Shown here piece by piece: positions 3,035 through 60,612 of a stretch of 64,000 nucleotides of DNA. Each line of letters starts with the position of its first letter. Positions within the stretch are counted from its first letter, which is position 1. The stretch comes from a bacterium. Lineage in GTDB: Bacteria > Babelota > Babeliae > Babelales > Vermiphilaceae. The DNA is taken from contig JAKBEL010000021.1 of assembly GCA_021833825.1 (NCBI GenBank), forward strand, positions 525 through 64,524, in the 5' to 3' direction. A model generated the notes under the pieces. The model was not told where the DNA came from, made no database searches, and saw only the letters and a program-made list of their open reading frames with translations. The translations under genes were made by a program, and so were the position numbers.

Positions 3035-3868
3035 TTAATGAAGAGATTTTGCAGGTTTGAGCCCGATTTTCAGTTCTACAAGTAGTTTTTCAGGCTCCAT
3101 GAGGTTCAAAACAGTTCCAGCTTTGGGGTGTTGATCAATGATATAATAGGTCTTGGATTGCTCAGGGGCTATATCGGTCTGATAATGGTTAATGCTATAT
3201 TTTGTCAGTATTGTAACAACAGATTCCAATGTTTTGCCCTTAAAATTGGGAAATATGACAAGATTATCTTTTTCTTGAGCAATATAGCAGATCAAAGATC
3301 TGTTCTTAATTGGTTGACCTGCTGATGGCCATTGGCCAAAGCAGTGGCCAACTGGGTAAGAGTAGGAGATGGTATGGAATGTCGGTTTTAGGCCGATAGC
3401 TTGAGTGGTCTTTCTTATCTGGTCTATTGAGAGCCCAATGCATGAAGGGGCAACTTCTGCAGAGGGCTTTTCAGATATGACAATATAGACAGTCTGATTC
3501 TTTTTGATTAATCTGCCAGCTTGTGGCCTTTGATGAAGTACCGTTGCAGACGGCAGCCCAGTATCTTTTTTGATCTGAATAATTTCAGGATGAAGTTGAT
3601 AACTGGAGAGTAGTTTGGTCGCCTCAACTAAATGCATGCCGGTAATATCTGGGGTGATAAAGCAGGGATAGCCAAATAGTATATGTAGTGCAAAATAGGT
3701 AGAGATAAAGAGAACAAAAGGTGTGATCCATAGATGAGGATAGAGTGTTGATAGCTTCACAATTACACCATAATGTTCCAGAAGATATTGAAATTCATGG
3801 ATTGGCTGACAATAAGCCGGATTCTGTTCTACATTATCTGTAGTGGCAACCATTAATCTATGCAGCAT
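3035..3868 (-). CDS. Membrane-anchored protein with three PASTA-like repeats
   Basis: ORF track 277 aa. One TM segment (LWITPFVLFISTYFALHILFG) followed by three ~65-aa repeats (PDITGMHLVEATKLL..., PSCIGLSIDQIRKTT..., PNFKGKTLESVVTIL...). The first ~22 codons overlap the 3' part of rnpB, so the true start is probably internal, e.g. GTG at 3760. Confidence 0.7.
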   Translation of the reverse strand: MLHRLMVATTDNVEQNPAYCQPIHEFQYLLEHYGVIVKLSTLYPHLWITPFVLFISTYFALHILFGYPCFITPDITGMHLVEATKLLSSYQLHPEIIQIKKDTGLPSATVLHQRPQAGRLIKKNQTVYIVISEKPSAEVAPSCIGLSIDQIRKTTQAIGLKPTFHTISYSYPVGHCFGQWPSAGQPIKNRSLICYIAQEKDNLVIFPNFKGKTLESVVTILTKYSINHYQTDIAPEQSKTYYIIDQHPKAGTVLNLMEPEKLLVELKIGLKPAKSLH

Positions 3869-9148: not shown

Positions 9149-9570
9149 TGATCGCAGATCAAAAAGACAAGTGATCACAACGTGTTGCGCTCAGCGGGTT
9201 TTCAACCGGTTAGGGATACAAAAGGTGCCCCTTTTGTGCCGTTTTGGTTGTTAGGGGTTTTGGGCAAGCAAAATCCTTAACAAAGGGGGAATAAAGTAAA
9301 AAATTAGAAAAAGAAATTTAGAAAAATAAAGGATGATAACTTTTTATGTTGCCAGTCCGGCCAGCACAAACAAAAAGAGTCTTCCTTTTCCAACTGTGCA
9401 ATAATTCTACATTTTATTTGTTCAATACATATTATGTTATCATGCTTTAAAAATCGCAACTGAATCGCTTCAATTTTTATATAAAACTATGTTTACAAAT
9501 ATTTTTTTATGGGTTATAACTGTCTGCATTGTATATATAAACTAACAGTTTAACTTCAAGGAGCAGGGCT

Positions 9571-12532: not shown

Positions 12533-13702
12533 ATGTTCATAAAAAGAGCGATTGCACAGGATATTCTTGAAGCGGCAAAGCATTTTTCAGCTTTAGCTGT
12601 TCTGGGGCCACGCCAATCGGGTAAAACAACGTTAGTACGTAATGTTTTTACAAACCATGCATATGTCAATTTAGAGCATCCCAAGACCAGAGATTTTGCG
12701 GTTGCAGATCCGGAAGGGTTTTTTGAACAGTATCAGAATGAATATGGGCTTATTATAGATGAGTTTCAGCATGTGCCTGAACTACTATCCTATATTCAGA
12801 TCTTTATTGATGAACGCAAAAGGCCCGGTTATTTCATTTTAACCGGTTCGCAAAACTTTTTAATGAATGAAAAGATCTCGCAAACATTAGCAGGTCGGAT
12901 CTCTATTCATACCTTATTGCCACTCTCTATTGGCGAGTTAAAAGAGGCAGCATTATTGCCACAATCACCAGAAGAACTTATCTGGAAGGGTTGTTATCCA
13001 TCGGTCTATATCGATAAAGAGCTCTCTCCAGAACGTTGGTATCAGAACTATATTCAAACCTATCTTGAGCGTGATGTTCGGCAATTAAAACAGGTTGAGG
13101 ATTTGCAACTGTTCAGAACTTTCGTGCAACTGTGTGCAGGGCGCGTTGGGCAGCTGTTAAATTTATCTTCACTTGGTAATGATTGTGGTGTTAGTGACAC
13201 CACTGCACGGCGTTGGATAGCGTTATTAGAGGCAAGTTATATTATTGTTCTATTGCAGCCATATCATAAGAATTTTAATAAACGGATCACAAAAAGCCCA
13301 AAGCTCTATTTTGTTGATACCGGTCTTGCATGTTCATTGCTTAATATTCAAGAGAATAGCGTTACTGATCATTATCTACGCGGTGGGCTGTTTGAGAATA
13401 TGATGATTGTTGATTTCTATAAACGAGCCTATAATCAAGGTGGTGTGCCACATTTCTATTTCTGGCGTGATCAAACTCATGAGATCGATCTTATTATTGA
13501 TCGTGGGACCAGTATCTATCCGGCAGAGATTAAATCGAGCAGGACCATCTCACAATCATTTTTCAGTAATGTTCAATATTTGGCGCAACTGGCTGCACTG
13601 AATCCAAAAGATAATGTTATTATTTACACAGGAGATGAGCATCAGAAGCGCACCATGGGGCAAGTGATTGGCTGGCGTGATGTCGATTCGATCGTTATAT
13701 GA
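12533..13702 (+). CDS. AAA+ ATPase with DUF4143-type C-terminal region (paralogue of 1785-2948)
   Basis: Walker A GPRQSGKTT and IIDEFQ. A strong SD precedes the start. Confidence 0.85.
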   Translation: MFIKRAIAQDILEAAKHFSALAVLGPRQSGKTTLVRNVFTNHAYVNLEHPKTRDFAVADPEGFFEQYQNEYGLIIDEFQHVPELLSYIQIFIDERKRPGYFILTGSQNFLMNEKISQTLAGRISIHTLLPLSIGELKEAALLPQSPEELIWKGCYPSVYIDKELSPERWYQNYIQTYLERDVRQLKQVEDLQLFRTFVQLCAGRVGQLLNLSSLGNDCGVSDTTARRWIALLEASYIIVLLQPYHKNFNKRITKSPKLYFVDTGLACSLLNIQENSVTDHYLRGGLFENMMIVDFYKRAYNQGGVPHFYFWRDQTHEIDLIIDRGTSIYPAEIKSSRTISQSFFSNVQYLAQLAALNPKDNVIIYTGDEHQKRTMGQVIGWRDVDSIVI

Positions 13703-13719
13703 TATTGTTGCAATAAAAA

Positions 13720-20693: not shown

Positions 20694-22256
20694 ATGAGAT
20701 CACTATTAGAAGAAAAAGATATTGAGTTGCAGCGATTTCAAGATCAGATGAAGAAATTGACAATCAATGGTCAATTGATGAGTTTAGGAAATATTCTCGC
20801 GTATGCAGCCGTTCAGCATGGAAGCGCTATTGCGCTAGAAGCAGAGTCGCACAGTATCAGTTATACGTCCCTTTATCAACGGGCATGTATGTTTTCAGTG
20901 CAGCTTAAAAAGAAGGGCATTAAAGAGGGTGATGCAGTTCTTGTCTGGCTTGAAAATTCCATTGAATTTTATATTGCATATTTTGGTGTTTTGCAGATCG
21001 GTGCAATTGTTGCTCCATTGAATGTCTATTTAACAGAGCATGAATTGACTCATATTGTCCATGATGCAAATGCGCAATTGGTGGTGACATCAAAAGATTT
21101 TTGTCAGCGCTTAAAAGAGGGGCACAATACTCTTCCGATTTTGCTTATCGAAGAGACTATAGATCTTGACGCGCATATTACGCTTGAGCATTGTGAAGTT
21201 GTGCAGAAGGATCCAGATGCTTTGACGTTGTTATTATATACATCTGGCACTACTGGATTGCCTAAAGGGGTTATGATCAGTTCAAGTAATGCACTTCATA
21301 ATGCCTGTCAAGCACTTGCTAGAATACGATTCGCGCAATGTCGTGTATTATGTGTATTGCCACTGTTTCATAGTTTTACGCAAAATGCTTGTGTCTGGAC
21401 CCCCTTGATATATGGTTGTACCGTTATTCTTGTGCGTAAAATAGATCGCCGCCTGATTTTAGAGGGGCTTGCAAAAAAGCCGGATATCTTTTTAGGTGTA
21501 CCAGCTCTTTATGGACTTTTGTGTCTGATGAAAACTGCGCCTATTGAAAATATTCAGTTGTTTGTTTGTGGAGCAGACGCTCTGCCAGACAGAATACGTT
21601 CATCATTTGCTCTGGTCTATAATCGTAAAATTGCCAATGGTTATGGCATGACTGAGAGTTCTCCTTTTATATCGGTTGATCTTGAAGATGTTACTGAACC
21701 GACTAATTGTGTAGGAAGGCCATGTGTTTATCTTGATGTGCAAATAAGAGATGAGCTGGGGAATGTTTTGCCGCAAGGGTCAGTTGGGCAATTGTGGGTT
21801 AAGGGGCCAAATGTTATGCTCGGTTACTATAATGCGCCTGAACAGACAGCTGAGGTTCTTAAGGATGGTTGGTTAAACACGGGTGATTTAGCCTATATCA
21901 ATAGGCATGAAAAGATAGTAATATCTGGTCGGGAAAAAGATATTATTAAAAATAAGGGGCTTATGATCTACCCACAAGAGATAGAGAATGTGATTCTTGG
22001 CCATGCTGACGTCTTGCGCGTTGGTGTTATTGGCAAACCAGATGAGGCTGGAGAGGTTCCTATTGCTATAGTGCAGATTCGTGCAGAGAATGCTGACATT
22101 GAATCGCAACTATTAAAGTTGTGTAAAGAGCGATTAGCTCCTTATAAAGTCCCAAAAGGTTTTATTATTATTCGCCATGATCCACCATTGACGGCCACAG
22201 GTAAGATGAATAAAAAAGCTCTCAAAAAAGAGTATCTGAAAGATGAAAAAATATAA
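20694..22256 (+). CDS. AMP-dependent acyl-CoA synthetase/ligase (long-chain-fatty-acid--CoA ligase-like)
   Basis: LLYTSGTTGLPKGVM, GYGMTE, TGDLAY and a KNKG... region. Confidence 0.85.
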   Translation: MRSLLEEKDIELQRFQDQMKKLTINGQLMSLGNILAYAAVQHGSAIALEAESHSISYTSLYQRACMFSVQLKKKGIKEGDAVLVWLENSIEFYIAYFGVLQIGAIVAPLNVYLTEHELTHIVHDANAQLVVTSKDFCQRLKEGHNTLPILLIEETIDLDAHITLEHCEVVQKDPDALTLLLYTSGTTGLPKGVMISSSNALHNACQALARIRFAQCRVLCVLPLFHSFTQNACVWTPLIYGCTVILVRKIDRRLILEGLAKKPDIFLGVPALYGLLCLMKTAPIENIQLFVCGADALPDRIRSSFALVYNRKIANGYGMTESSPFISVDLEDVTEPTNCVGRPCVYLDVQIRDELGNVLPQGSVGQLWVKGPNVMLGYYNAPEQTAEVLKDGWLNTGDLAYINRHEKIVISGREKDIIKNKGLMIYPQEIENVILGHADVLRVGVIGKPDEAGEVPIAIVQIRAENADIESQLLKLCKERLAPYKVPKGFIIIRHDPPLTATGKMNKKALKKEYLKDEKI

Positions 22257-23334
22257 GCTTGTGCATGTCACTTCAAGTTTATGTATAGGTGGTGCTGAAA
22301 AAGTTCTCTATATGCTCATCAAAGGGTTGCAACAGAAGGGTTATGATCAGGTAGTTGTGTATATCCATGGTGGCCCATATGTTGGTAAGTTACAGGAGCT
22401 TGGTATTAGAACGTATCAACTGCGTGGATTTTTTTCGCGCTATGATCTCATCTTTTTTATTCGTCTTTATCGATTATTAAAAAAAGAGCAACCATCAGTT
22501 ATTCATTCACTTTTATGGGCAGCCAATGTAGTATCACGCCTTTGTGGGTGGGCGGCCCGTATTCCAGTAGTTTCTGTCTATCATAATAATGTTGAGCAGG
22601 ATGGTTATATTCGATCATTATGTGATCAATTGACCATCTCTTTGGCAACCTATAATATTGCGGTCTCTGCTCAGGTAGCAGCGTCAGTTAGAGAAAGAGC
22701 ATGGGTTCCTGGTAGGCGCATATCAGTTATTACCAATGGGATTGATCTTGCATATGATAAGATTGTCTATCGATCAAAAAAAGAGTTGGGCATTCAAGAT
22801 GACTATTTTGTAATAGGTGCTGTTGGTAGATTGGTTCCGGTTAAACGGTTTGATTATTTAATTGATGCTTATGTTGCATGTGCGATTCCATCAAGTTGTT
22901 TGCTAATTATTGGCTCTGGTCCATTAGAAAAAGCATTGCGAAATCAGGTTGTTAGGTTGCATGTGGAGCATAAGGTCTATTTTTTAACCGATTCTGAAGC
23001 ATTAGCCTATTATAGGTTATTTGACTGTTTTGTTCAGCCATCAGAAAAAGAGGGGGTCTCATTGGCTCTTCTTGAGGCGATGAGTTTTTGCAAGGCAGTA
23101 GTGGTTATGGGCAATAATAAAGAACATCCAATTGTTACTCATGGGTATGATGGTTTAGTTGAAGATTCATATAGCAAAGATAAGCTTAAAGATGCTTTGT
23201 GCTATCTTTATAATAATAGAGATAAGCGTGTTGAATTAGGGCTTAGAGCGGGGAGCACAGTTCAGAAAAAGTTTGAATCGACCCGCATGGTTCAAGCGTA
23301 TCAAAATCTATTTGATCAATTGAGCTTTATGTAG
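22243..23334 (+). CDS. Glycosyltransferase, GT4-type (GT-B fold)
   Basis: N-terminal GGAEKV and C-terminal EKEGVSLALLEAMSF (E-x7-E). Confidence 0.8.
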   Translation: MKKYKLVHVTSSLCIGGAEKVLYMLIKGLQQKGYDQVVVYIHGGPYVGKLQELGIRTYQLRGFFSRYDLIFFIRLYRLLKKEQPSVIHSLLWAANVVSRLCGWAARIPVVSVYHNNVEQDGYIRSLCDQLTISLATYNIAVSAQVAASVRERAWVPGRRISVITNGIDLAYDKIVYRSKKELGIQDDYFVIGAVGRLVPVKRFDYLIDAYVACAIPSSCLLIIGSGPLEKALRNQVVRLHVEHKVYFLTDSEALAYYRLFDCFVQPSEKEGVSLALLEAMSFCKAVVVMGNNKEHPIVTHGYDGLVEDSYSKDKLKDALCYLYNNRDKRVELGLRAGSTVQKKFESTRMVQAYQNLFDQLSFM

Positions 23335-23464: not shown

Positions 23465-24547
23465 ATGACGTTCTGTCAGGATGGGGGTAAACTTTTAAGT
23501 GCTTTCATGAAACATACCTGTAATCGTATCTATCCGTATGTGCAAAACGGACGATTTTATAACTATCCCAATGAAATTCCGGAAGGGTTCTTCTTTCGGT
23601 CATTGTATATTTATTTAAAATCACATGTGAACAGGTTGTTTTATCATCCACAGACGCAAGACTGGATTGTGAAGCCGAATGTTCCTCAAAGAAGTATAGT
23701 TCCCATTATCACCTGGATAGGCCATTCTACATTCTTAATACAGGTTGCAGGTTTTAATATTATTACCGACCCTATATTTGGCAATGCGACCACTCTGTTT
23801 CCTCGTATATTAAAGCCGGGGCTTGAATTGGCGCAATTGCCACCGATTGATTATGTTCTTATCTCTCACAATCATCTTGATCATATGGATGCTCCCGCTC
23901 TCTTTGTATTTAAAAATGATCATCCTCAGTGCTCTTATTTAGTCCCTTTGGGTGATAAAAAATGGTTCGATGAGCGTGGGTTTTCAAATGTTCGTGAATA
24001 TACTTGGTGGCAACAGGATAGTTTTTCTCTTGAAAATGAGCATGTCACCTTTACTTTTTTACCCGCCTTTCATTGGTCACAGCGGGGAATGTTTGATAAA
24101 AATAGGTCTTTGTGGGGCAGTTGGATGATTGATGTTGGGGGCAAGCGTATCTATTTTGCGGGCGATACAGCCTATACGCGCCATTTTAAGGTGATAGGGC
24201 AGGAGTTTGATCGTATTGATTGTGCTTTAATGCCTATCGGTCCTTGTGAGCCACATAAATGGATGAAGTTTTCTCATGCCAATGCTAAAGAATCATATCA
24301 AGGATTTCTTGATCTTCGTGCTCATCATTTTATTCCTATGCATTGGGGCACATTCTATTTTGGAACAGACACATTTGAGACGTCTCTTAAAGAGTTAGAA
24401 TCTGTGTGGAATAGTCTCCATCAAGATAGATTGTCTCAAAAGCGATTACATATAATGCATGTTGGCCAAACAATGCCATTGCCGACTAGTCAGCCCCCTG
24501 AATTAGAGAATGATCAATTGGTGGCAGGTTCTGTTGACGCAGCATAA
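23465..24547 (+). CDS. MBL-fold metallo-hydrolase, NAPE-PLD-like
   Basis: TWIGHSTFLIQ, ITDPIF and ISHNHLDHMD. An alternative ATG lies at 23507. Confidence 0.8.
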   Translation: MTFCQDGGKLLSAFMKHTCNRIYPYVQNGRFYNYPNEIPEGFFFRSLYIYLKSHVNRLFYHPQTQDWIVKPNVPQRSIVPIITWIGHSTFLIQVAGFNIITDPIFGNATTLFPRILKPGLELAQLPPIDYVLISHNHLDHMDAPALFVFKNDHPQCSYLVPLGDKKWFDERGFSNVREYTWWQQDSFSLENEHVTFTFLPAFHWSQRGMFDKNRSLWGSWMIDVGGKRIYFAGDTAYTRHFKVIGQEFDRIDCALMPIGPCEPHKWMKFSHANAKESYQGFLDLRAHHFIPMHWGTFYFGTDTFETSLKELESVWNSLHQDRLSQKRLHIMHVGQTMPLPTSQPPELENDQLVAGSVDAA

Positions 24548-24801
24548 TATGTCTCTTGGCCCAAAAAATCTGATGGCACATGTCGAATAAATTCAGATGG
24601 CGAAATTCAAGTTTTGCCCAAATTGGGTGAAGTTTTAGTGTGAGTGTGCCCAATGAGCAGAGGCACTTAAAGGTTGTAGAGTCTTTTTTCTCCGCATAAA
24701 AATTGTTTATATGTGATCAATAAAAAAAAATGGACCATTTTCCTTTCACATGGTATTATGGTTATGTTAATAAATATGTATCATGTTATACAGGATCGAT
24801 T

Positions 24802-25932
24802 ATGAAAAAATATATAGTAGCATTATTGCTTATTCAAGCAGTTCAATTGCTCAACGCAGCAGCTGATGAGGAAGATACTCCTGTTAATCCCCATCAGTTA
24901 TTGGGAGAGGCAGTTGCCCATTCTATTCATTTTTTTGCTCCAGCATCTTATTTGGGTGAACCATATGTAAGAAAATTATTATTAGGTGATCGCTTTCCTG
25001 TCCACAATGCGGTTGAACAAGGATCTCTCTTTAGGCTGGCATATTTTGTGTCCAGAGGGTTTGATTTGGAAGAAAGAGATAATATGGCATGGCGCACTCC
25101 ACTTCATAAGGCCTCTTGGTGGCTATTTGATAGAGATGTTCTGCTTTTTCTATTAAAAAAGGGCGCCGATGTTAACGCTCGTAATTATTTTGGGCACACA
25201 CCCATTTTTGAAGTTATTATGCAAGGCAACCCGGGTGGTGCGCAGTTGCTGTTAGAGCATGGTGCTGATCTTAATGCTCGAGATAATAGTGGCCGCACAC
25301 CATTTTTTCATGCGCGCAATGTGCCTACTTTTAGATGGTTACTAGAAAACGGTGCCGATGTTAATGTTCGAGATGATCATGACTGCACACCACTTTTTGG
25401 AGCTATTGAGCGCCTCAGGGGGCGAGATTGTGTTGAATTTTTACTGCAAAATGGTGCCGGTGTTAATGTTCGGGATACTTCTGGTAATACACCGCTTGGT
25501 TTTGCCATTTCAACGTATGGTAGAGCTCGGCTTGACTCAGAGCCTCTCTATTCTATTGTGCAACTATTAGTAGAAAGCGATGCTGATGTTAACGCTCAAG
25601 ATAATAATGGTTGCACTCCATTGCATAAAGCTGCATCTGTAGGGAATCTGCCTTGTGTAAAGCTCTTGCTAAAACAAAAAAATATTAATATTTATCTGAC
25701 GGATGCAGATCAAAAGAGTCCAGCACATTATGCTTTGAGAGGCATCAGAGATTGGAATAAAGATGATTATCTTCAGATTCTACAAGCATTAGCCCAAGAA
25801 GGCGCACCTCTTTCAGATGCTTCTTATCAGAATGATTTTGATCCACTGATTGAAGATGGAATAATTACGCAAGAAGAGTGGACTGATATTATGAGCTGGG
25901 TAGTTGAAGATGTTAAAATGGCGCAAGATTAA
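24802..25932 (+). CDS. Ankyrin-repeat protein with signal-type leader
   Basis: Repeated G.TPL...A...G....V..LL..GADVNA modules (about 7). Start taken at MKKYIVALLLIQAVQLLNAAADE, which is the same as in the downstream paralogue; the ORF-track start is 24730. Confidence 0.85.
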   Translation: MKKYIVALLLIQAVQLLNAAADEEDTPVNPHQLLGEAVAHSIHFFAPASYLGEPYVRKLLLGDRFPVHNAVEQGSLFRLAYFVSRGFDLEERDNMAWRTPLHKASWWLFDRDVLLFLLKKGADVNARNYFGHTPIFEVIMQGNPGGAQLLLEHGADLNARDNSGRTPFFHARNVPTFRWLLENGADVNVRDDHDCTPLFGAIERLRGRDCVEFLLQNGAGVNVRDTSGNTPLGFAISTYGRARLDSEPLYSIVQLLVESDADVNAQDNNGCTPLHKAASVGNLPCVKLLLKQKNINIYLTDADQKSPAHYALRGIRDWNKDDYLQILQALAQEGAPLSDASYQNDFDPLIEDGIITQEEWTDIMSWVVEDVKMAQD

Positions 25933-26004
25933 GAGAGTTCTTGTAAAACTACCATCTCATTATTCTGTTTAAAAAAAGATACATTTTATTATATAAGGTC
26001 GATT

Positions 26005-26685
26005 ATGAAAAAATATATAGTAGCATTATTGCTCATTCAGACAGTTCAATTGCTCAACGCAGCAGCTGATGATGAGGGTCTTTCTGTAGATATTGCGTGT
26101 TTATCAATAAAAAATGGTGCAGATATTGATGCTCGAGATAATTTTGGCCACACACGACTTTTTAAAGCTGTTTTAGGATATGATGAAGATCTCGTTCAGT
26201 CTTTACTAGCAAATGGCGCCGATGTTAATGCTCGGGACGTATCTGGCAACACTCCGCTTATTGCTGCGATTTCTGCTGTTTATCCGGATCAAAATTATTA
26301 TGGAGTTATTCTGGAATTGTTGATAGCAAAAGGCGCCGATATTAACAGTCAGGATAATTATGGTTACACTCCGCTACATCAAGCACTATCTTTTCGATAT
26401 CTGCCTTGCGTGCTACTTCTTTTAGAACAAGAAAATATTAATATTGATCTTAAAAGTAAATATGACGAGAGACCGATAGATTGCGTTTTGAATAGTTACT
26501 TCTGTTGGAAGAAAGATGATTATCTTCAGATTCTACAAGCATTTGCCCAAAGAGGCGCACCTCTTTCAGATGCTTCTTATCAGAATGATTTTGATCGATT
26601 GATTGAAGATGGAATAATTACGCAAGAAGAGCGGGCTGATATTATGAGCTGGGTAGTTGAAGATGTTAAAATGGCGCAAGATTAA
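26005..26685 (+). CDS. Ankyrin-repeat protein, shorter tandem paralogue
   Basis: The leader and the last ~60 aa (KDDYLQILQA..APLSDASYQNDFD.LIEDGIITQEE..DIMSWVVEDVKMAQD) are nearly identical to 24802-25932. The central ANK repeats differ. Confidence 0.85.
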   Translation: MKKYIVALLLIQTVQLLNAAADDEGLSVDIACLSIKNGADIDARDNFGHTRLFKAVLGYDEDLVQSLLANGADVNARDVSGNTPLIAAISAVYPDQNYYGVILELLIAKGADINSQDNYGYTPLHQALSFRYLPCVLLLLEQENINIDLKSKYDERPIDCVLNSYFCWKKDDYLQILQAFAQRGAPLSDASYQNDFDRLIEDGIITQEERADIMSWVVEDVKMAQD

Positions 26686-26776
26686 GAGAGCTCTTGTAAA
26701 ACTACCATTTATATTCGATACTTCATTAAATGAGTTGGAGATATTGTGGGGGCAACTCAAGAGGGGTGTATTGTTA

Positions 26777-26853
26777 TAAAAACGATTGCCTATCATGCAT
26801 GTTGGTCAAACCATAGCGATGACAGATCTTGAACTTATAGATAAAGCATTCAT
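26777..26853 (+). pseudogene. Decayed copy of the 3' end of the MBL-fold hydrolase gene (compare 24437-24520)
   Basis: Translates as KRLPIMHVGQTIAMTDLELIDKA..., versus KRLHIMHVGQTMPLPTSQPPELENDQL at the real gene end. DNA is about 75-80% identical by eye with one gap. It abuts the IS left inverted repeat. Confidence 0.65.
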
Positions 26854-27774
26854 AGAGCCTATCCCTAAATTCCGATCTTATTAAAATTAATGATTGAAGC
26901 CGCAAATTGGGCCATAGCCAAATAGTTTTTAGCATGCTTTGAAAAATGAATTAAAACATCTCTGAATCGGTTCATCCAGGAATGAACTGGCTCAATAAAC
27001 CAACGAGAGTAGCCTAAAGGATTTTTAGGTAAAGTCTTTGAGTTACGAGGATTAGGAGCAATTTTGGGTATGTAATAGAAATTGAATAATATTGTCTTCA
27101 CATGCTGATTGTCGCATGCGGCATCAAGGTGCATTTCTTTATAGCGTGGCATCTTGAGCGTAGATGGAATAGACTTAATGGTTTCAAAATAACTCATGAT
27201 CAGGCTGATTTGATCCTCCAATAGCAAGTCCCAGAATGACTCCATGTTTTTGTGCTATAACACTTATTTTTGTACCCATTTTTCTTCTATCCACTGGGCT
27301 ATTGCCGCTCTTATCTTTACTTAGAGGGCTTTTTCTATGCCCACAATCAATCGATTGCTTATCCAAGGACAATCCATGTATTTCGTCGTATTGTCTTACT
27401 TGATCATCAAATAAATCCTTGAACACATTCACTTTAACCAGCTTTTGAAAAAATCTATGCACTGCGGATGATGACCCAAAGCATTTTTGGCAAAGCATTC
27501 CAGTGAACAGAGGTCTTAAGAAGATAGTAAATTCCGTGAAGCATTCTTGATAAATCTAATGGTGGACGACCAACTTTTTTTGTAAATTCTTTATGTTTTG
27601 ATATGATCGATAGCAACTGAGTTAGCAAATTTTGTGACATCAAAAAGCGATTATTGATGCATTCTTCGTAACATGCTTTTGTTTTCATGGAAAATCTCCC
27701 TCTTGGATTGTGATTACTTCTTGAGGGAGATTATATTACTTTAAGTTATTTTTGGTAATTTAGGGATAGGCTCT
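26854..27774 (-). mobile_element. IS5-family (IS427/IS1031-like) insertion sequence, about 0.92 kb
   Basis: Perfect 18-bp terminal inverted repeats: agagcctatccctaaatt (26854-26871) and aatttagggataggctct (27757-27774). They enclose transposase fragments. Confidence 0.85.
26865..27688 (-). pseudogene. IS5-family transposase split over three reading frames
   Basis: ORFs 27455-27688 (GRPPLDLSRMLHGIYYLLKTSVHWNALP), 27184-27498 (FGSSSAVHRFFQKLVKVNVF...DRRKMGTK) and 26865-27245 (...YSRWFIEPVHSWMNRFR...) are colinear with one IS5-type protein. The first break lies inside the N-terminal domain. Confidence 0.8.
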
Positions 27775-27902
27775 TATAAAAGAGCCAGGCTGCAATTAGA
27801 AATATCTTTCTGTCGTAGAACAATCTTTTTCTTGGTCATTGAGCTTCTCATGTGTATAGTATAGTACGTCTATATCTGATATTTATCATGAGGAGCTCTG
27901 TT

Positions 27903-29555
27903 ATGATGATGCCATTCTTGTTATTTTTCTCAATACCAGTTCAACTTTTTTCTGCAGCTGAATATTGCTCCCCTCAACAGAGGCGGACTGTAGTATTATC
28001 GGGAGGTTTTGTGCCAGCGGCAAAAGAAGTTGCAATAGATGCTCCTGCTAGGTTTATGTCATATAGATGTGATCAGGAAGAGATTGTTTTTGATACCCAA
28101 TTTCTTGAAACAACATTCCGACATTCTTTATCATTCCAGAATAGATATTCTCGCAATAAAACTTTTGAGAATCTCATTAATGCTTTTTGCCAAGGATTAA
28201 AAAAAGATCAGATACAATTGCTTATTGCTGCGATTGGGAAAAATAATGAGGCGATTCAAGGCAGGATTGATTCTGCTCATATTTTTGCGCAGCAGATACA
28301 AGAGAATGATTTTCCATGGCTTCTTAAAAAGGCTCGCAATTATGGCATTGATTATGTTTACAGCGCGCTTATACATCGTATTGCTAGTGATCCGAATTTT
28401 GCACATACCATTTCAGACAGTTATCAACTTACTGATTCAACCTATTTTGCTATATCATCAAAAATTGACAGAGAAAAACTTCATGAAATAATATCTGGAG
28501 ATTTAAGAGAAGTTGTTCGATTTGATTATCAACCAGGAAAGATAAAGTCCATTTTGTTTGATAAAGATAATCCTTCAAAAATGTTTGTGGCCGGATCTTC
28601 AGGAACTCTCTTATACGATCTAGCAAAAGGTCAAATAGTACAACAATTTTTGCTTAAGAATATTATTAATGATGGTTTTGTTTGTTCTGATAGATCTGGT
28701 AATTACTGTTTTGAGCTGAATGATGGCCAAGTTTTTCTTTGGGAACTTCAATTCAGGCCCGCAAGAAGATCGGAGCTTAATCTTGCAAAGGGGATAATCA
28801 AGATTGGTCTTAATAGTTCTGATACGCAATTTTTTGCGCAATATAGAGATAGAGTGTTGGTTTATGATATTGAGACAGCAGGAGTAAAAGAGGTCTCTTT
28901 TGGTAAAGAGGGTAGCGCTTTACAATCTCATGAAGATAGTATCTCTGTATATTATAAAGATGATGATACTCTATGTATAAAACAGGGGGGCAACTTTTGC
29001 ATATATGATCCGAAAAGTGAGAGTAGCCGTATTGTTGTATTGCCAGAAAATGTTTATAAAGATAATAGTCTTGAAGTTGTATATAATGAGCAAGGAACGC
29101 AGGCCCTATTGAGATGTAATGATGCATTGCATATATATGATTTTGAAAAAGCATTAGAGGTTGACATAAGATTGCCCATTAAACAGTCAGAGCAGCTTCT
29201 TGGTGCCCAGTATTGTGATAATGATAGTAAGTTATTGTTGCGTACAGGATATAGAATATATGTATATGATATTCAGACAAGAAGTTGCACAGCCTCATAC
29301 CCTATATTGCCAGAATATGATAGACTTCTTTATAAATCAAAAAGAGTAATTGCTTTACATAATTCTAGCAGTATGTTTGTTTTATATCCAGATATTATGT
29401 TAAGAGACCTAAATCCTAAACAGATACTCTTTTTATTTAAAGCCTCCTCTTCTTGGCACATCAATAAAAAGTATATGTTGAAAAAAGAGGATCTTGAGAT
29501 CTTTAACTCATTGCCAGAACAGATAAAATCAGATTATCTCTTTTATTCAGAGTAG
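27903..29555 (+). CDS. Leader-bearing hypothetical protein: N-terminal helical region plus beta-propeller-like repeats
   Basis: GAGGAG lies 7-8 nt before the ATG at 27903 (MMMPFLLFFSIPVQLFSAAEY). Blade-like motifs recur: LLYDLAKG, VFLWELQF, VLVYDIETAG, FCIYDPKSES, LHIYDFEKA, IYVYDIQTRS. Confidence 0.6.
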   Translation: MMMPFLLFFSIPVQLFSAAEYCSPQQRRTVVLSGGFVPAAKEVAIDAPARFMSYRCDQEEIVFDTQFLETTFRHSLSFQNRYSRNKTFENLINAFCQGLKKDQIQLLIAAIGKNNEAIQGRIDSAHIFAQQIQENDFPWLLKKARNYGIDYVYSALIHRIASDPNFAHTISDSYQLTDSTYFAISSKIDREKLHEIISGDLREVVRFDYQPGKIKSILFDKDNPSKMFVAGSSGTLLYDLAKGQIVQQFLLKNIINDGFVCSDRSGNYCFELNDGQVFLWELQFRPARRSELNLAKGIIKIGLNSSDTQFFAQYRDRVLVYDIETAGVKEVSFGKEGSALQSHEDSISVYYKDDDTLCIKQGGNFCIYDPKSESSRIVVLPENVYKDNSLEVVYNEQGTQALLRCNDALHIYDFEKALEVDIRLPIKQSEQLLGAQYCDNDSKLLLRTGYRIYVYDIQTRSCTASYPILPEYDRLLYKSKRVIALHNSSSMFVLYPDIMLRDLNPKQILFLFKASSSWHINKKYMLKKEDLEIFNSLPEQIKSDYLFYSE

Positions 29556-29674: not shown

Positions 29675-30601
29675 ATGTACTATTTTTTGGTTGTGATATT
29701 TTTTTTATTCAATAGTTTAGATGCTTATATCTATCAAGCCATTATTATGAAAAAATGGAATGATCTGCGCAATAGATATCATTATGTTATTGGCTTAGGT
29801 GATTATCATATTAAACATGATAGTGTTATCAAAAAACAGCATAATCAATTAAGGTCATTGCTTACCAATATGGATGCTCAATGCTGTAAGGTTATAACTG
29901 AAGATTTGAGCGTTCCAAATGTTGATGGTAGATGTGGAAGTGGAAAATTTCGTATCAATTCTCGCGGAGGCTTTTTGGGAGGTATTACTGAAAAATGTCG
30001 AAATATGGGGCTTGATGCTGATAATTTTGAGTATCGATATGCACGAGTCTGCTCTATTGGTCCAGTTCTAAAAGATGTCACAAAAGATCCTAAAGCATAT
30101 CCCTCTGTAGTAGGAATATCGGTTGGAGATGTGGTCAAAGAGATTAAAGATGAATCTCAAAAAATTGTAAAGTTTGATGATGGGCGAGTTCTTAATGATT
30201 GGTATCGTGCATCGGTTGAACAGGTTGATAAAAAGATTGTTGCTTATGGTCTGACTGATCATAAGATGAGTATGGCCGATTATTTAGCGAGCAAACAAAA
30301 CAATCCAACGCTATTGGAAAAACTGCTCACCTTTGATCGTGCTCTGCTTGATGCACATATAGTCCACTCGGTTGTCAACACCAATAAAGAGAATATCTGT
30401 TTGCTTGCAGGTGGCTCGCATATTGAACGTGTTTCACAGATGTTGGAAAAAGTTGGCTATAAAAGGGTGTTAGAGTTACCAAAAATCAATGCTCATGCAG
30501 CTCGGATTGAAAGCTCTCTGCAATCTGAAAGTGGGGCAAGCGATAATATGAGTATCCCATATGCTATTGATCTTAGTGGTTTTCAGAATTTGAAGTTATA
30601 A
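29675..30601 (+). CDS. Leader-bearing hypothetical protein, possibly EreA/ChaN/TraB/TIKI-like
   Basis: GGGGAG SD. Motif order VIGLGDYHIKHD ... VITEDL ... LLAGGSHIERV resembles the GxxH...E...GxxH arrangement of that superfamily. Weak, by eye only. Confidence 0.5.
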   Translation: MYYFLVVIFFLFNSLDAYIYQAIIMKKWNDLRNRYHYVIGLGDYHIKHDSVIKKQHNQLRSLLTNMDAQCCKVITEDLSVPNVDGRCGSGKFRINSRGGFLGGITEKCRNMGLDADNFEYRYARVCSIGPVLKDVTKDPKAYPSVVGISVGDVVKEIKDESQKIVKFDDGRVLNDWYRASVEQVDKKIVAYGLTDHKMSMADYLASKQNNPTLLEKLLTFDRALLDAHIVHSVVNTNKENICLLAGGSHIERVSQMLEKVGYKRVLELPKINAHAARIESSLQSESGASDNMSIPYAIDLSGFQNLKL

Positions 30602-34999: not shown

Positions 35000-36148
35000 T
35001 TAGCAATGTGCCTGTCTCTGCAATTCATGATACAGTTCAAGATGCTGATTGATCATCGCTTCAGGTTTAAAATCATCGAGATTCTCTTTATACGCACTCA
35101 ATGGTTGATGAAGATTTTCCTGTTTGCTTATTTCTAGCATATATTTTCCCAGGCTCGTCCAATCATATTGTTCGCATAAGAGACCATTTTTCCCATGCAT
35201 AATGACATCATGAATGCCGCCAGTATTATAACTTATTACAGGTAGCTTTAACAATCGTGCTTCTATAATTGCGCAAGGAAGCCCTTCCCATAGGGAGCTT
35301 AACACAAATGCATGCCAATTGAGCATGAAGGGTGCAACAGTGTGTTGCCATCCATGCAATCTGATAACATCTTGTAAATGATGTTGGGCAATCCATGTTT
35401 CGATCTCATTGCGCAATATACCATCACCAATGATCTCTAGACGGGCAAGAGGATTTTGAGTATAGACGTGAGCAAAAGCTTGCAAAAGATCAAAGATGTT
35501 TTTCTGTCTTTTAAAGCAGGCGATGGTTCCAAAGATGAACGGTCGATCTTGTGGAAATTCGGGTAGAGTTTTTGTTTGTGATTCAAATTGTGACCAATCA
35601 ATAGCAGCGCGTATAATAGTGTGATGAGATTTAAATTTTCCAAATAGGCGAATGCCGGTCTTTACATCTTCAATTGATACGCAAATAAAGTGATCGGTAA
35701 TAAGACTTGTGACCCATTCTAAGCATATAATGGGAATGCGAATAAAAAATGGTTGATGATTATGAAATCCATAGCCATGAATAGTGTGAACTCTATATTT
35801 TACTTTGGCAAAAAATGCGGCCCATCTGCCAATCAGTCCAGCTTTTGTGCTGTGGGTGTGCACAATAATATTTGGATGTTTTTTTCGTAATCTGCGTAAT
35901 TCTTGTATTAAACGAAAAAAGGAGAATAATTCTTTGAGTATGCCATTGACTTCACGTGTCAATTGGTCAAGGAGTATTACGTTGTTATTATTTTTGATAT
36001 TTTCTGCTAATATGCCATCTTTTCCAGATATGAGAAGGGTGTTAATATCCCTTTTTTTTAGATCGTTAAGTAAAGTAAGGCATACTTTTTGGGCGCCGCC
36101 CAGTTCAAGCTTGGTTATAATATAAACAACATCTATAGGGTGCTTCAT
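35000..36148 (-). CDS. Glycosyltransferase, GT4-type
   Basis: LGGAQKV near the N-terminus and SLWEGLPCAIIEA...GGIHDVI near the C-terminus. Confidence 0.8.
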   Translation of the reverse strand: MKHPIDVVYIITKLELGGAQKVCLTLLNDLKKRDINTLLISGKDGILAENIKNNNNVILLDQLTREVNGILKELFSFFRLIQELRRLRKKHPNIIVHTHSTKAGLIGRWAAFFAKVKYRVHTIHGYGFHNHQPFFIRIPIICLEWVTSLITDHFICVSIEDVKTGIRLFGKFKSHHTIIRAAIDWSQFESQTKTLPEFPQDRPFIFGTIACFKRQKNIFDLLQAFAHVYTQNPLARLEIIGDGILRNEIETWIAQHHLQDVIRLHGWQHTVAPFMLNWHAFVLSSLWEGLPCAIIEARLLKLPVISYNTGGIHDVIMHGKNGLLCEQYDWTSLGKYMLEISKQENLHQPLSAYKENLDDFKPEAMINQHLELYHELQRQAHC

Positions 36149-59200: not shown

Positions 59201-60612
59201 ATGCAACAGTAGTTCTTAATGAAGATGTTATTATTAATAATATCTGTTCAATTTTACCTGGTCCAAATATCTCTTCAACATCAAAACTAAAATTCACCTC
59301 CGATTGTTGTAAAACATTGCGTGTTACTAAAGATGGTATACTTGACTTGAGTGGTTTTGATGAAGGTCAAGTTATCGAATTTGCAGGTAATGTGCACGTG
59401 GTTTTTGAGCCGGGATCAACAGTAATCTATAATCCTATCTCTCAAGGAACGGGGCCAACATTACGTTTTGCAGATCAGGCTACATGTCTATTTGAACCAG
59501 TACATAATCTTGATGGTATTTTTGGAACCGATTTGACAGGAACAGATACTGTTCGCGTTGTATTTACTGGAGTAGGAGTATTAGAGTTTGCAGATTGTGC
59601 TCGAGCAGATCTGCCGCGCGATGCATTTGTTGGTATTGAGTCTTTAGCATCTTGTGATATAAGCGGTGCAGTTGTGCGACTTCATATAACTGATAGCGCA
59701 GAATTCTATATTGGTGATACTGATTGTAGAACGCCCGGTGGTGTGTTACAAGTTGGCAATACTATTCCGTTCACTATGAATGTTGATCCAGTAATTACTT
59801 TTAGTCTTATCTTAGATGGTCCTCAAGCTAAATTTGAAATTGGGCCACAAGGGTTCTTAGGTCTTGGTATGGGGATTGTCAATAAGCCTGCACTGGGGCA
59901 TGACAATTGGCTTGTAACTCAAGCATATAATTTAAATACAGTCAGTTTAGATTTGCCTAATGGCATTTTCCGTCATGCTCAACTCTATGCTGGAAATGAT
60001 GATCGCTCAGCATTGATAGCATTAGGTGATTCTATTTTGGGTGGAACAAATCCATTTGAATTCTATAGTGACCCACTGCCAGGTACAGCGCCTGATAAAT
60101 ATTCAGCATCATTGCTTTCAAATACTAATCTGTTGGGTGGTGGTAACATAATTGCAGCAGCGCCATCAACAACAGAGGTGTTCGCTCCAGTTGTTGATGA
60201 TGTGAATGGTGCTATAAATTCAGGTCAATATTTTGCAGGGATTTTGGCATCAACACCGATATTACAAGAGCCACAATTTTCAGGCAATGCAGCAGTGAGC
60301 GCTCAAGAGGCTCAATTGTTATTAAGGGCACAAGATATATTATTATTAGCTCCAACAACTAATCGTGCGGTTGCAGCACCAAGTGACCTGCTCAATCAAG
60401 TGCGTGTTGGTTATATTGATTCTGCTAATATTCCTGGATCTGAAGGTTTAATTGGAAGAATAGAAGTTATTAATATTCTTGGAAAGACTCCGCAGACTGT
60501 TGTTCAGCAACATACATTGCAGATTGGCGTTGCACAAGTAACCCCAACTCCATTGAGTGCTGGAAATAATCCTCCACGTCCAATTTTATCAGTAAATGAA
60601 TTAGGTAATTAA
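56293..60612 (+). CDS. Giant (1439 aa) secreted G/N/T/V-rich, Cys-containing protein, beta-helix/adhesin-like
   Basis: Leader ...LCAVPSLVNA. Recurrent short strand-turn patterns (GAEVVFDLSTYSLTFEG, GKVVFVLGDGKKLILTN, GAQLIFVGNTG). Close Cys pairs SCVGC, ACDGC, DCYNPCVCPP and SDCC. No C-terminal barrel signature. Confidence 0.7.
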   Translation: MSDRFFIHKWKFTIWFLLCAVPSLVNAIPTITWTNLNTPSNISGGFVASVLLDATGSGGVIELQPNSPTVFPGTVGTNVISSYNVGPAMIGVSLAGDTIIRGNAAGNSRLYVYAQLGAEVVFDLSTYSLTFEGSANGDDLLIAIQGQGKVVFVLGDGKKLILTNNSVAGGGRVQMYRQLDDNMTARPGAQLIFVGNTGSVNPEVVIEEGSIVSYLGYTAQPNAPTSENGIILFDTTNNSGSNEMILTIGQLGAVIVRGRLVSNVTPPEDYNYTLADIDPSMPAGFNAIFNVINMNGSSASGGLLVQNYNNTLGELIWDPWCNLDVRSNPPFGNFNGVQWGFVLGSYATLNVNGYAYLDYVSLTGTQCPVVSSLVNASSLIKSRNPSALFTDGQPDPLFIPPQITIGQVGQPAGIFFRSGVDNNGTIRSLSDPNPFTIDPANRTPGEGFVVFDIEGPLNITGFNTALQEFSGIELLSLEVDPTGGSLFVGDGQTIFPLRTFATQSVTDQCTGQVTETYLSYNNACFLNNGRVNLQSVSIIHTDQNHHVFEDNDVASEPAYIGGETWLFKSCVGCIAKPKWAFYNSRFDVQTSVALTGVDLLVPNGSDYATPCGANLSQFAFYQNGKAIDHGNGRNMILGTYIGSTACDGCTVLDKDAQLDVMQDQDCDSPSPQELQLVNGVNDNTIVQGITGDISNQYSIQTIYLGNNSNISVGTQGSLGTTMSVTVPVQSTFPLTTLPILTIDGNFFSFETRGGENGLPDTSNVTGQGGIFVDTNGTFQIGSQVCGYRTNIGAMVTKSSNGVINLPSNRVFFDPTIGIATWNLDLSDSNQWVIVPNGVEYEEYNLNWMFTIKDYNQFMPYYLTDCYNPCVCPPVIDMNVTAIPEVQGTVQQFNIQGSRIGDPAHLKVNGGTIEELVMLVGFNSAEAPVAVLVLENNAEVGLGSTHRNVDSLHASVQLGVNGINLIMDGGDATVVLNEDVIINNICSILPGPNISSTSKLKFTSDCCKTLRVTKDGILDLSGFDEGQVIEFAGNVHVVFEPGSTVIYNPISQGTGPTLRFADQATCLFEPVHNLDGIFGTDLTGTDTVRVVFTGVGVLEFADCARADLPRDAFVGIESLASCDISGAVVRLHITDSAEFYIGDTDCRTPGGVLQVGNTIPFTMNVDPVITFSLILDGPQAKFEIGPQGFLGLGMGIVNKPALGHDNWLVTQAYNLNTVSLDLPNGIFRHAQLYAGNDDRSALIALGDSILGGTNPFEFYSDPLPGTAPDKYSASLLSNTNLLGGGNIIAAAPSTTEVFAPVVDDVNGAINSGQYFAGILASTPILQEPQFSGNAAVSAQEAQLLLRAQDILLLAPTTNRAVAAPSDLLNQVRVGYIDSANIPGSEGLIGRIEVINILGKTPQTVVQQHTLQIGVAQVTPTPLSAGNNPPRPILSVNELGN

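Follow-up and report, generated by a model that had tools for sequence, protein, structure and literature searches.

Here, we describe a locus of an amoeba-associated bacterium (Dependentiae) in which two ankyrin-repeat genes stand between an intact hydrolase gene and a dead fragment of that gene's 3' end, hereafter the relic. It lies within a 64,000-nt stretch of DNA, the window, which corresponds to C7:525-64524 of a genome of 1.23 Mb in 23 contigs (37% GC), assigned to the Dependentiae (TM6) by the source names of its homologues. All features named in this paragraph are on the plus strand, except for one insertion sequence (IS). The hydrolase gene (23465-24547) encodes a protein of 360 aa with a metallo-beta-lactamase (MBL) fold, an assignment that follows from its match to Pfam Lactamase_B_2 (PF12706; E 9e-32, 110.8 bits against a cut-off of 27), while the labels UlaG and NAPE-PLD-like are source annotations of its homologues and not a tested identity. 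Judging from the alignments described below, codons 1-303 would be the native body of this gene and codons 304-360 (24374-24547; ...HQDRLSQKRL...SQPPELENDQLVAGSVDAA) a proposed replacement end, which we call type A. A spacer (24548-24801), in which a promoter scan placed a promoter-like site at 24731-24759, leads from the hydrolase stop to ank1 (24802-25932), encoding a leader-bearing ankyrin-repeat protein of 376 aa counted from the ATG at 24802, and then to its tandem paralogue ank2 (26005-26685, 226 aa). The 3' flank of ank2 (26686-26713) meets the relic out of register at ~26702-26713. The relic itself is split into 26714-26853 and 27775-27799 by an IS5-family-like element (26854-27774, minus strand) with inverted repeats. 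On its far side follow a native spacer with a promoter block (27800-27902), a gene for a propeller-like, leader-bearing protein of 550 aa (27903-29555) and a conserved gene of 308 codons (29675-30601; the 308-aa gene), which closes a variable slot. In line with the earlier note, which saw nothing but the two ankyrin genes between gene end and relic, the list of open reading frames (ORFs) and Pfam agree that this interval holds these two genes only, with matches to Ank families alone and all other ORFs below 80 aa. An Rfam search of 24300-28000 returned zero matches.

The similarity between the relic and the end of the hydrolase gene is real. When the hydrolase protein was searched against all six frames of the genome, the fragment came up unprompted (26711-26821, residues 303-339, 54% identity, one TAA, E 2e-5 per genome), and tblastn of the hydrolase against the genome gave the relic E 6e-5. 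At the nucleotide level, a repeat finder paired 24430-24474 with 26770-26814 (45 nt, 80%), and the hydrolase gene end of a related contig, L049, aligned with the relic by blastn over 124 nt at 72.6% (E 2e-13). The first part of the relic spans codons 304 to ~349 of what was once the hydrolase end; it is free of indels and is interrupted in frame by one TAA (26777-26779). It translates as FDTSLNELEILWGQLKRGVLL*KRLPIMHVGQT, to be compared with FETSLKELESVWNSLHQDRLSQKRLHIMHVGQT for hydrolase residues 304-336, and over these codons 20 of 33 residues and 63 of 99 nt are identical. The earlier note had the gene end recur at 26777-26853. The alignment that it proposed is significant at the protein level across the genome, but the segment that it named is only the second half, as the match begins 21 codons earlier, at 26714; the relic is about twice as long as first stated.

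Nor does the relic end exactly at the left inverted repeat of the IS, as had been thought: across the joined IS flanks its frame runs on for 8 further codons to a TAG at 27797-27799 and reads ...IDKAFIIKEPGCN. With the element removed, the tail consists of IAMTDLELIDKAF before and IIKEPGCN after the point of insertion, and the joined relic tail, stop and spacer are collinear with gene tail, stop and spacer of relatives, among them L045 and L049. Its best gapped alignment is with L045. The tail measures 21 aa plus stop, close to the 22 aa plus stop of the type-B ends introduced below, against 24 plus stop in type A. On these grounds, the relic probably continues beyond the IS to this stop codon. 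The IS is 921 bp long and single-copy in the assembly, has perfect inverted repeats of 18 nt, and carries a transposase split over three ORFs (27455-27688, 27184-27498 and 26865-27245). In a Pfam search of the three ORF pieces, DUF4096 was matched weakly (25.9 bits against a cut-off of 34.3, E 1.2e-5) and a DDE domain was not found. A target duplication of 2 nt (TA) is possible and ambiguous. The element interrupts the relic ~8 codons 5' of the relic stop, and its insertion removed nothing of note.

The native arrangement could be read from close relatives, which were found via the propeller-like protein and the 90% cluster of the hydrolase; scans of genome contigs and metagenome contigs with the hydrolase protein yielded more distant relatives only. 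Upstream of the junction, the order acyl-CoA ligase (20694-22256, +; ORF list and Pfam), glycosyltransferase (GT; 22243-23334, +; likewise) and hydrolase is kept in all relatives. In four close lineages (L045/L046, L047, L049), whose flanking genes are 80-86% identical to the window in nucleotides, ligase, GT and hydrolase lead to the propeller-like gene and on to the 308-aa gene, with no ankyrin gene in between, and the hydrolase has an end of another kind (type B, ...GQTM[AP][ML]PVLED...). Thus, genomes with the MBL gene and without the ankyrin insertion, for which the earlier note had suggested a search, do exist. A propeller-like homologue stands directly 3' of the hydrolase gene in L045, L047 and L049, and 3' of an ankyrin-like gene in L044 (identities among homologues of 83, 67, 57, 55 and 56%). 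The block CTTGGTCATTGAGCTTCTCATGTGTATAGTATAGTACG (27811-27860), which includes a promoter-like -35/-10 pair at 27833-27860, is kept in five lineages, namely the window, L044, L045, L047 and L049. When the IS is removed, relic, tail, stop, spacer and the promoter block of the propeller-like gene are collinear with the type-B native junction, and because of this collinearity the relic is the original gene end in its original place. It is, in other words, the original hydrolase 3' end, still joined to its original spacer and to its propeller-like neighbour. The earlier description of the relic as a decayed copy of the gene end was right in that this is a dead gene-end fragment, yet it is not a copy of the present end.

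In more distant relatives the slot between the hydrolase and the 308-aa gene (whose homologues follow the slot in G001, G002, G010, L029, L031 and L033-L037) has other contents or none: it is empty in L031, L036 and L037, holds one or two unrelated minus-strand genes in L029, L033-L035, G001 and G002, and contains a distant homologue of the propeller-like gene in L030. Ankyrin genes were found in this slot in none of the type-B or more distant relatives compared, and no relic was seen at the same slot in 19 related loci. The ankyrin genes are hence inserted cargo and not ancestral neighbours, as had been proposed from the window alone.

One sister lineage shares the insertion. It is represented by two contigs from a single sample (SRR21359626), L048 and L044, which are 85-90% identical to the window and have a gap between them. 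The hydrolase of L048 (P0251) has a type-A end (...HQDxLSQKRL...SQPxEL...QLVAxSVDxA), which the window shares with this contig only, followed by the spacer and the start of an ankyrin gene. Window 24699-24813 and L048 1809-1923 are 82% identical, and the left part of the insert is thus common to both lineages; apart from this match, a search for non-coding similarity to the spacer between hydrolase and ank1 in relatives gave none. L044 starts inside an ankyrin-like gene and then runs straight into the spacer of the propeller-like gene, with neither relic nor IS: the flank GAT TAA GA.AGC, as found 3' of ank2, is joined directly to this spacer. In the window, the same flank is also present after ank1, up to ~25948, and ank1 and ank2 are linked by two repeats, D2 (25752-25955 vs 26505-26708, 96%) and D3 (24769-24884 vs 25972-26087, 84%).

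These comparisons establish that the insertion took place in the common ancestor of the window and L048/L044, which both share it, and at which point of the gene. They also show that the relic is positionally homologous to the native gene end, and in which order the later events occurred. We propose that an insert made up of a replacement 3' end (codons 304-360), the spacer and an ankyrin gene would have entered the ancestral gene at about codon 304, whereby the old end would have been stranded downstream as a promoterless relic and the hydrolase would have stayed intact. In the window lineage, the ankyrin gene then underwent tandem duplication (D2, D3), followed, in this lineage only, by entry of the IS5-like element into the relic tail. 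The sister lineage, in turn, lost ~190 nt including the relic. Overall, we consider it likely that an ancestral insert brought in a replacement end together with an ankyrin gene by one-sided recombination, and that the relic is the original end which it displaced.

The two junctions of the insert differ in kind. The left one is in register and leaves the hydrolase frame unbroken, and the switch of end type maps to codons ~293-304. Within this range, codons 293-303 (24341-24373, HWGTFYFGTDT) form the most conserved stretch and, by the junction alignment, the likely junction zone; they are near-identical in all lineages, with the window and its sister differing from type B at few synonymous sites. 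Third-position differences between the window and L047 amount to 6 of 33 in codons 265-297 and to 24 of 33 in codons 298-330. At the right junction, the ankyrin 3' flank abuts codon 304 at ~26702-26713 without similarity, and at most ~30 nt of recipient sequence were replaced; upstream of 26711-26714 there is zero similarity to the hydrolase gene.

As to the origin of the present end, the differences between gene end and relic in the 99-nt block of codons 304-336 number 9, 8 and 19 at the three codon positions, with proportions of synonymous (pS) and nonsynonymous (pN) differences of 0.73 and 0.27, and the 20 shared residues compare with 11.4 ± 1.9 expected if all 36 differences were neutral (P 5e-5). 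Besides, roughly the same distance (61-67% nt identity), with the same codon-position profile, separates the relic, the resident end and the orthologous gene ends of other species from one another. Gene end and relic thus diverge like two working genes, a pattern that points to an imported replacement end more than to a local duplicate in decay. In a tree of codons 1-303, the window and L048 are nested inside the type-B group, while in a tree of codons 304-336 the relic falls into that group next to L045 (weak support, 0.75) and the window and L048 sit on a long outside branch. Against L045 and L047, the fraction of identical-residue codons that differ rises from 0.32 upstream to 0.59 in the block (p 0.018); by the same measure there is no rise against the more distant L029 (0.42 and 0.41). 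Type-A and type-B tails are several indels apart, whereas equally distant type-B tails align gap-free.

On the other hand, a number of observations speak against this account. The synonymous-only jump at codon 304 (0.32 to 0.59) is modest, and of the 13 positions with a fixed difference between types A and B, the relic agrees with type B at 6 and with type A at 4 and departs from both at 3, so that it is not significantly nearer to type B. Along almost all branches, the block of codons 304-336 evolves ~3-5 times as fast as the remainder of the gene. Most of the rise in raw divergence at codon 304, from 13.5% to 34-37%, can thus be put down to rate, and the length of the type-A branch is not clearly out of the ordinary. 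A search of 80 family genomes, with a short query and low sensitivity, found no other carrier or donor of a type-A end. Among 5.8 billion proteins, ank1 has no close homologue except ank2, all other matches being generic ankyrin similarity of at most 38%. Base composition and third-position GC content of ank1, ank2, the relic and the propeller-like gene lie within ~2 standard deviations of the genome and are uninformative. The signal for import in the 99 nt is weak. For this single step, we lean towards import of the present end, give duplication in place roughly half that weight and leave the rest to other routes.

The layout is not confined to the hydrolase locus. Every ORF of at least 150 aa was compared with its own contig, and a nucleotide scan added cases. 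Of the 14 short intergenic matches with E < 1e-3, 8 were C-terminal ends lying downstream on the same strand, and every other class counted 2 at most. A second instance in the window of cargo between a gene end and its relic had been noted before, and we observed the corresponding 50-nt repeat (86%; 1685-1734 vs 3041-3089), which joins a PASTA gene end and a relic around a DUF4143 ATPase gene. When extended to the whole genome, as the earlier note had suggested, the search showed that this layout recurs at seven or more other loci. These comprise genes at C12 83697-84644(-), with relics at 82910-82969 and 81379-81529; C12 30597-31397(-), relic 29005-29132; C5 23920-24864(-), relic 23078-23334; C14 61426-62550(-), relic 59709-59812; C14 29516-30682(+), relic 35989-36034; C17 23367-25091(+), relic 26014-26049; and C19 27369-28187(+), relic 30185-30232. 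The relics listed here correspond to the last 11-48 codons of the respective gene, lie 0.5-5 kb downstream on the same strand and differ from the gene mainly at synonymous sites. The repeats start abruptly inside the gene and stop between -13 and +25 nt from the stop codon, mostly at 0 to +7. Pooling the seven other loci gave a pN of 0.033 against a pS of 0.21. Their ratio, 0.15, is incompatible with duplication in place followed by decay, which needs at least 0.5 (P ~1e-4).

The cargo at these loci varies and takes in toxin-antitoxin pairs, secreted proteins and an IS. At C12, a pair of a Gp49/HigB-like protein and a helix-turn-helix protein and a 406-aa leader-bearing protein accompany two nested relics; elsewhere we observed an AbiEi/AbiEii pair, a GNAT gene with an IS5-type transposase, small leader-bearing proteins and a DUF4143 ATPase. 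No recombinase was present in the cargo of three other loci, and no common motif was seen at the junctions of the 14 pairs. On C12, genomes of the same genus differ widely in what follows the GNAT gene, which makes this a second hypervariable slot beside that of the hydrolase. Two further candidates, at C19 56969 and C16 54077, turned out to be plain tandem duplications. A one-sided recombination process best explains the seven or more other pairs of gene end and relic, while the strong bias for 3' ends over 5' ends is unexplained by simple one-sided recombination.

Several other explanations have to be set against an imported replacement end. In a duplication in place, the ankyrin insertion would have duplicated the last 57 codons, whereupon the proximal copy, remaining functional, would have become type A and the distal copy would have decayed. 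For the locus as a whole we regard this as rather improbable, even though the relic agrees with type A at 4 of the 13 fixed differences, as would a branch from the stem of that type, the type-A stem in the block (0.29) is about what a 3-5-fold rate predicts from the upstream stem (0.077), and the tails of the relic and of L048 both start with ATAGCG. Such a history needs a ratio of nonsynonymous to synonymous substitution rates (dN/dS) of at least 0.5, yet the pN and pS given above correspond to a corrected ratio of 0.13; by a hand calculation, the synonymous excess has a P of ~0.01 or below, and the pooled ratio of the seven other loci and the several indels between type-A and type-B tails likewise tell against it. 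Nor do we know of any insertion mechanism that duplicates ~170 nt of its target. A plain tandem duplication of the form X-Y-x'-Y' was rejected for the hydrolase locus, where the IS and the propeller-like gene, rather than a second ankyrin copy, come after the relic, and where the ankyrin repeat has boundaries of its own. A different reading takes the relic for the remnant of a second full hydrolase paralogue or xenologue, or has it imported along with the propeller-like gene by right-anchored recombination. Tandem hydrolase paralogues are indeed found in one same-order genome (G032), and the relic is as far from the resident end as other species' orthologues are. In four close lineages, however, the one hydrolase gene ends at precisely the site of the relic, which is collinear with their tail, spacer and promoter block, and no relative has two copies at the locus, which makes this reading very unlikely. 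In particular, a second paralogue wrecked by the IS, the alternative raised in the earlier note, is ruled out, since the element lies ~8 codons before the relic stop, removes nothing of note, and the missing 303 codons are on the ankyrin side. Joint import of relic and propeller-like gene is ruled out as well: from ~27807 onwards the window is collinear with its sister L044 and closest to it (85% nt), being less like type B, which leaves no room for a homologous right anchor. Even less credit is due to the idea that the similarity arose by chance or during assembly. Taken against the resident end alone, the nucleotide alignment is indeed short (45 nt at 80%, or 34 nt at E 9e-5 in a comparison of 161 x 201 nt), but the genome-wide protein E-values and the alignment with the L049 gene end rule out a chance match, and the similarity is in frame and collinear over 54 codons. 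As regards the assembly, the hydrolase gene is recorded on nine contigs, six of which, in as many assemblies, are 50-200 kb long with mostly the same neighbouring genes; four contigs were compared and matched the window at 100% identity, the NCBI record (111.7 kb) spanning the whole locus and the three shorter ones coming from other samples.

Site-specific integration of an element with a surrogate gene end, its integrase being lost later, deserves comparison with a known case. Prophage e14 and phage 21 insert inside the 3' part of the E. coli housekeeping gene icd and supply a replacement end, so that the gene goes on working; the original end survives beyond the element as the C-terminal pseudogene fragment icdC, from which the new end is set apart mainly by synonymous substitutions (PMC13626634, with reference to Hill et al. 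1989, PMC210168). Similarly, 24374-24547 and 26714-26853 (plus 27775-27799) bracket 24548-26713 here. The geometry of intact gene, replacement end, cargo and displaced pseudo-end would fit such an integration, the repeats of younger pairs stop at the stop codon, as if only coding function had been kept, and three tyrosine recombinases and one large serine recombinase in the genome could act in trans. In contrast to e14, which has its own integrase and excises, the insert consists of ankyrin genes only: neither the ORF list nor Pfam gave an integrase or recombinase gene in 24548-26713, and the cargo of the other loci examined had no recombinase. The two junctions lack a common core, the relic has no conserved motif upstream of codon 304, the junctions of the 14 pairs have no motif in common, and the two ends, at 64% nt identity, are too diverged to recombine back. 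Moreover, eight or more target genes would need as many specificities. Taken together, we hold this form of integration to be quite unlikely.

For the one-sided process that we prefer, the most likely route, as far as the junctions allow one to tell, would be recombination with DNA from a related bacterium, homologous on the left and illegitimate on the right. It might have proceeded by homology-facilitated illegitimate recombination (HFIR) or through a break at codon 303/304 that was mended with foreign DNA as the template. In HFIR, as described for transformable bacteria, homology anchors one end of the incoming DNA, while the other end is joined to non-homologous sequence near the anchor, which traps foreign genes (PMC3240628; de Vries & Wackernagel 2002 and Prudhomme et al. 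2002, both as cited in PMC5361080). Likewise, the left junction at the hydrolase keeps the register and falls within the most conserved stretch, and the right one, without homology, lies ~0-30 nt downstream in the recipient; the difference is that HFIR is experimentally defined, whereas here it would be deduced from a scar in an uncultured intracellular bacterium, with a very short visible anchor. The insert may be of foreign origin: the window and a single sister lineage are the sole carriers of its ankyrin genes and type-A end, and the dN/dS pattern favours two alleles that were once functional, while a sign test in the block was neutral and the search for a donor gave none. RecA and DprA are present and intact in the genome. 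The only match to the ComEC family (PF03772; C22 31060-31482), however, contains an internal TGA and a TAA, possibly as a pseudogene or through a frame problem. These stops weigh against the proposed account, in that DNA uptake as its route is putative and not established.

Related layouts have been described in other settings. In effector-immunity arrays of type VI secretion systems (T6SS), as well as in Rhs and contact-dependent inhibition (CDI) systems, new modules are placed beside a conserved 5' region and displace old 3' ends, together with their partner genes, downstream, so that strings of orphan ends build up, for which HFIR has been proposed (PMC5361080). The C12 locus with its two nested relics resembles these arrays; in the latter, though, which are polymorphic toxin systems, the variable 3' ends are themselves the cargo, whereas the genes here are ordinary enzymes (hydrolase, GNAT, DNA ligase, glycosyltransferase) with separate cargo genes. 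A non-coding copy of a gene 3' end downstream on the same strand is also reminiscent of a diversity-generating retroelement. This was ruled out, as 10 of 36 mismatches fall on A residues of the relic, matching its A content (29%), the mismatches are mostly synonymous, and no ORF of at least 80 aa besides the ankyrin genes lies between the copies. The type of event is already known, from e14/icd, HFIR, Rhs and orphan ends of T6SS; what is new is the setting and the recurrence.

A more far-reaching idea is that Dependentiae may have a dedicated system which loads cassettes after the stop codons of core genes, each cassette carrying surrogate last 10-60 codons, with the help of a trans-acting factor. 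We consider this a long shot, and equally so its candidate factors, namely one of the few recombinases or the ten-copy family of AAA_14/DUF4143 ATPases, members of which recur at these sites. If true, gene-end relics would be products of this system and not accidents of recombination, which would greatly raise their interest.

The locus is an acquisition scar, in which the gain of a gene can be read base by base: the insert entered at codon 303/304 of a core gene, the scar has been kept, a sister lineage shares it and four lineages are without it. Ankyrin-repeat proteins are presumed host-manipulating effectors of amoeba-associated bacteria, and ankyrin gain in the genomes of such bacteria has mostly been inferred from gene counts. 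Our data suggest that slots just 3' of core genes are main entry points for accessory genes in this group, and that exchange with relatives goes on in Dependentiae despite their intracellular life. Gene-end relics with a pN/pS well below 0.5 could serve as a signature in scans of other reduced genomes, for dating and counting gains.

Some further observations concern the genes and loci mentioned above. The ankyrin-like gene of L044 (1-1128) is only 30-34% identical to ank1 and ank2 in its repeat body, and has the last ~35 residues (...SWV[IV][DE]DVKMAQD*) and the 3' flank in common with window 25830-25945 and 26586-26697. From its conservation, this C-terminal module may be a sorting or secretion tag, or a handle for recombinational swapping of the repeat body. 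For the hydrolase, the N-terminal 11-14 residues (MTFCQDGGKLL..., window 23465-23507) are kept in some relatives, whereas in others the same stretch lies upstream of, or out of frame with, the called start (products of 344 aa vs 358-360 aa), so that the called position is a candidate and the true start codon uncertain. The gene at C12 83697-84644(-) encodes a leader-bearing glycosyltransferase with a DXD motif (Pfam Gly_transf_sug, E 1.5e-12), which also resembles, if weakly, the catalytic glycosyltransferase domain of TcdA/TcdB (E 1.3e-5) and appears effector-like on the basis of these matches.

Ten paralogues of the AAA_14/DUF4143 ATPase were found in the 1.23-Mb genome, three of them at or next to gene-end relics. 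They lie at 12533-13702 and 1788-2948 (= C7 2312-3472) in the window, at 9413, 128235 and 114783 on C22, and at C16 51497, C12 27477, C5 16429, C11 5366 and C19 4055. The window copy at 12533-13718 is 84% identical in nucleotides to L029, whose neighbouring genes are at ~73%, which hints at mobility. As to recombinases, C14 13442-15105 holds a large serine recombinase (544-aa frame) beside a tyrosine recombinase (356-aa frame), possibly in a mobile element, and two further tyrosine recombinases on C19 are XerC/XerD candidates. Also on C19, a direct repeat of 211 nt (73%; 73566-73775 vs 76485-76695) covers the 3' end of an 899-aa gene, and its downstream copy adjoins a tyrosine recombinase match (72659-73171), the only gene-end repeat that we saw beside a recombinase.

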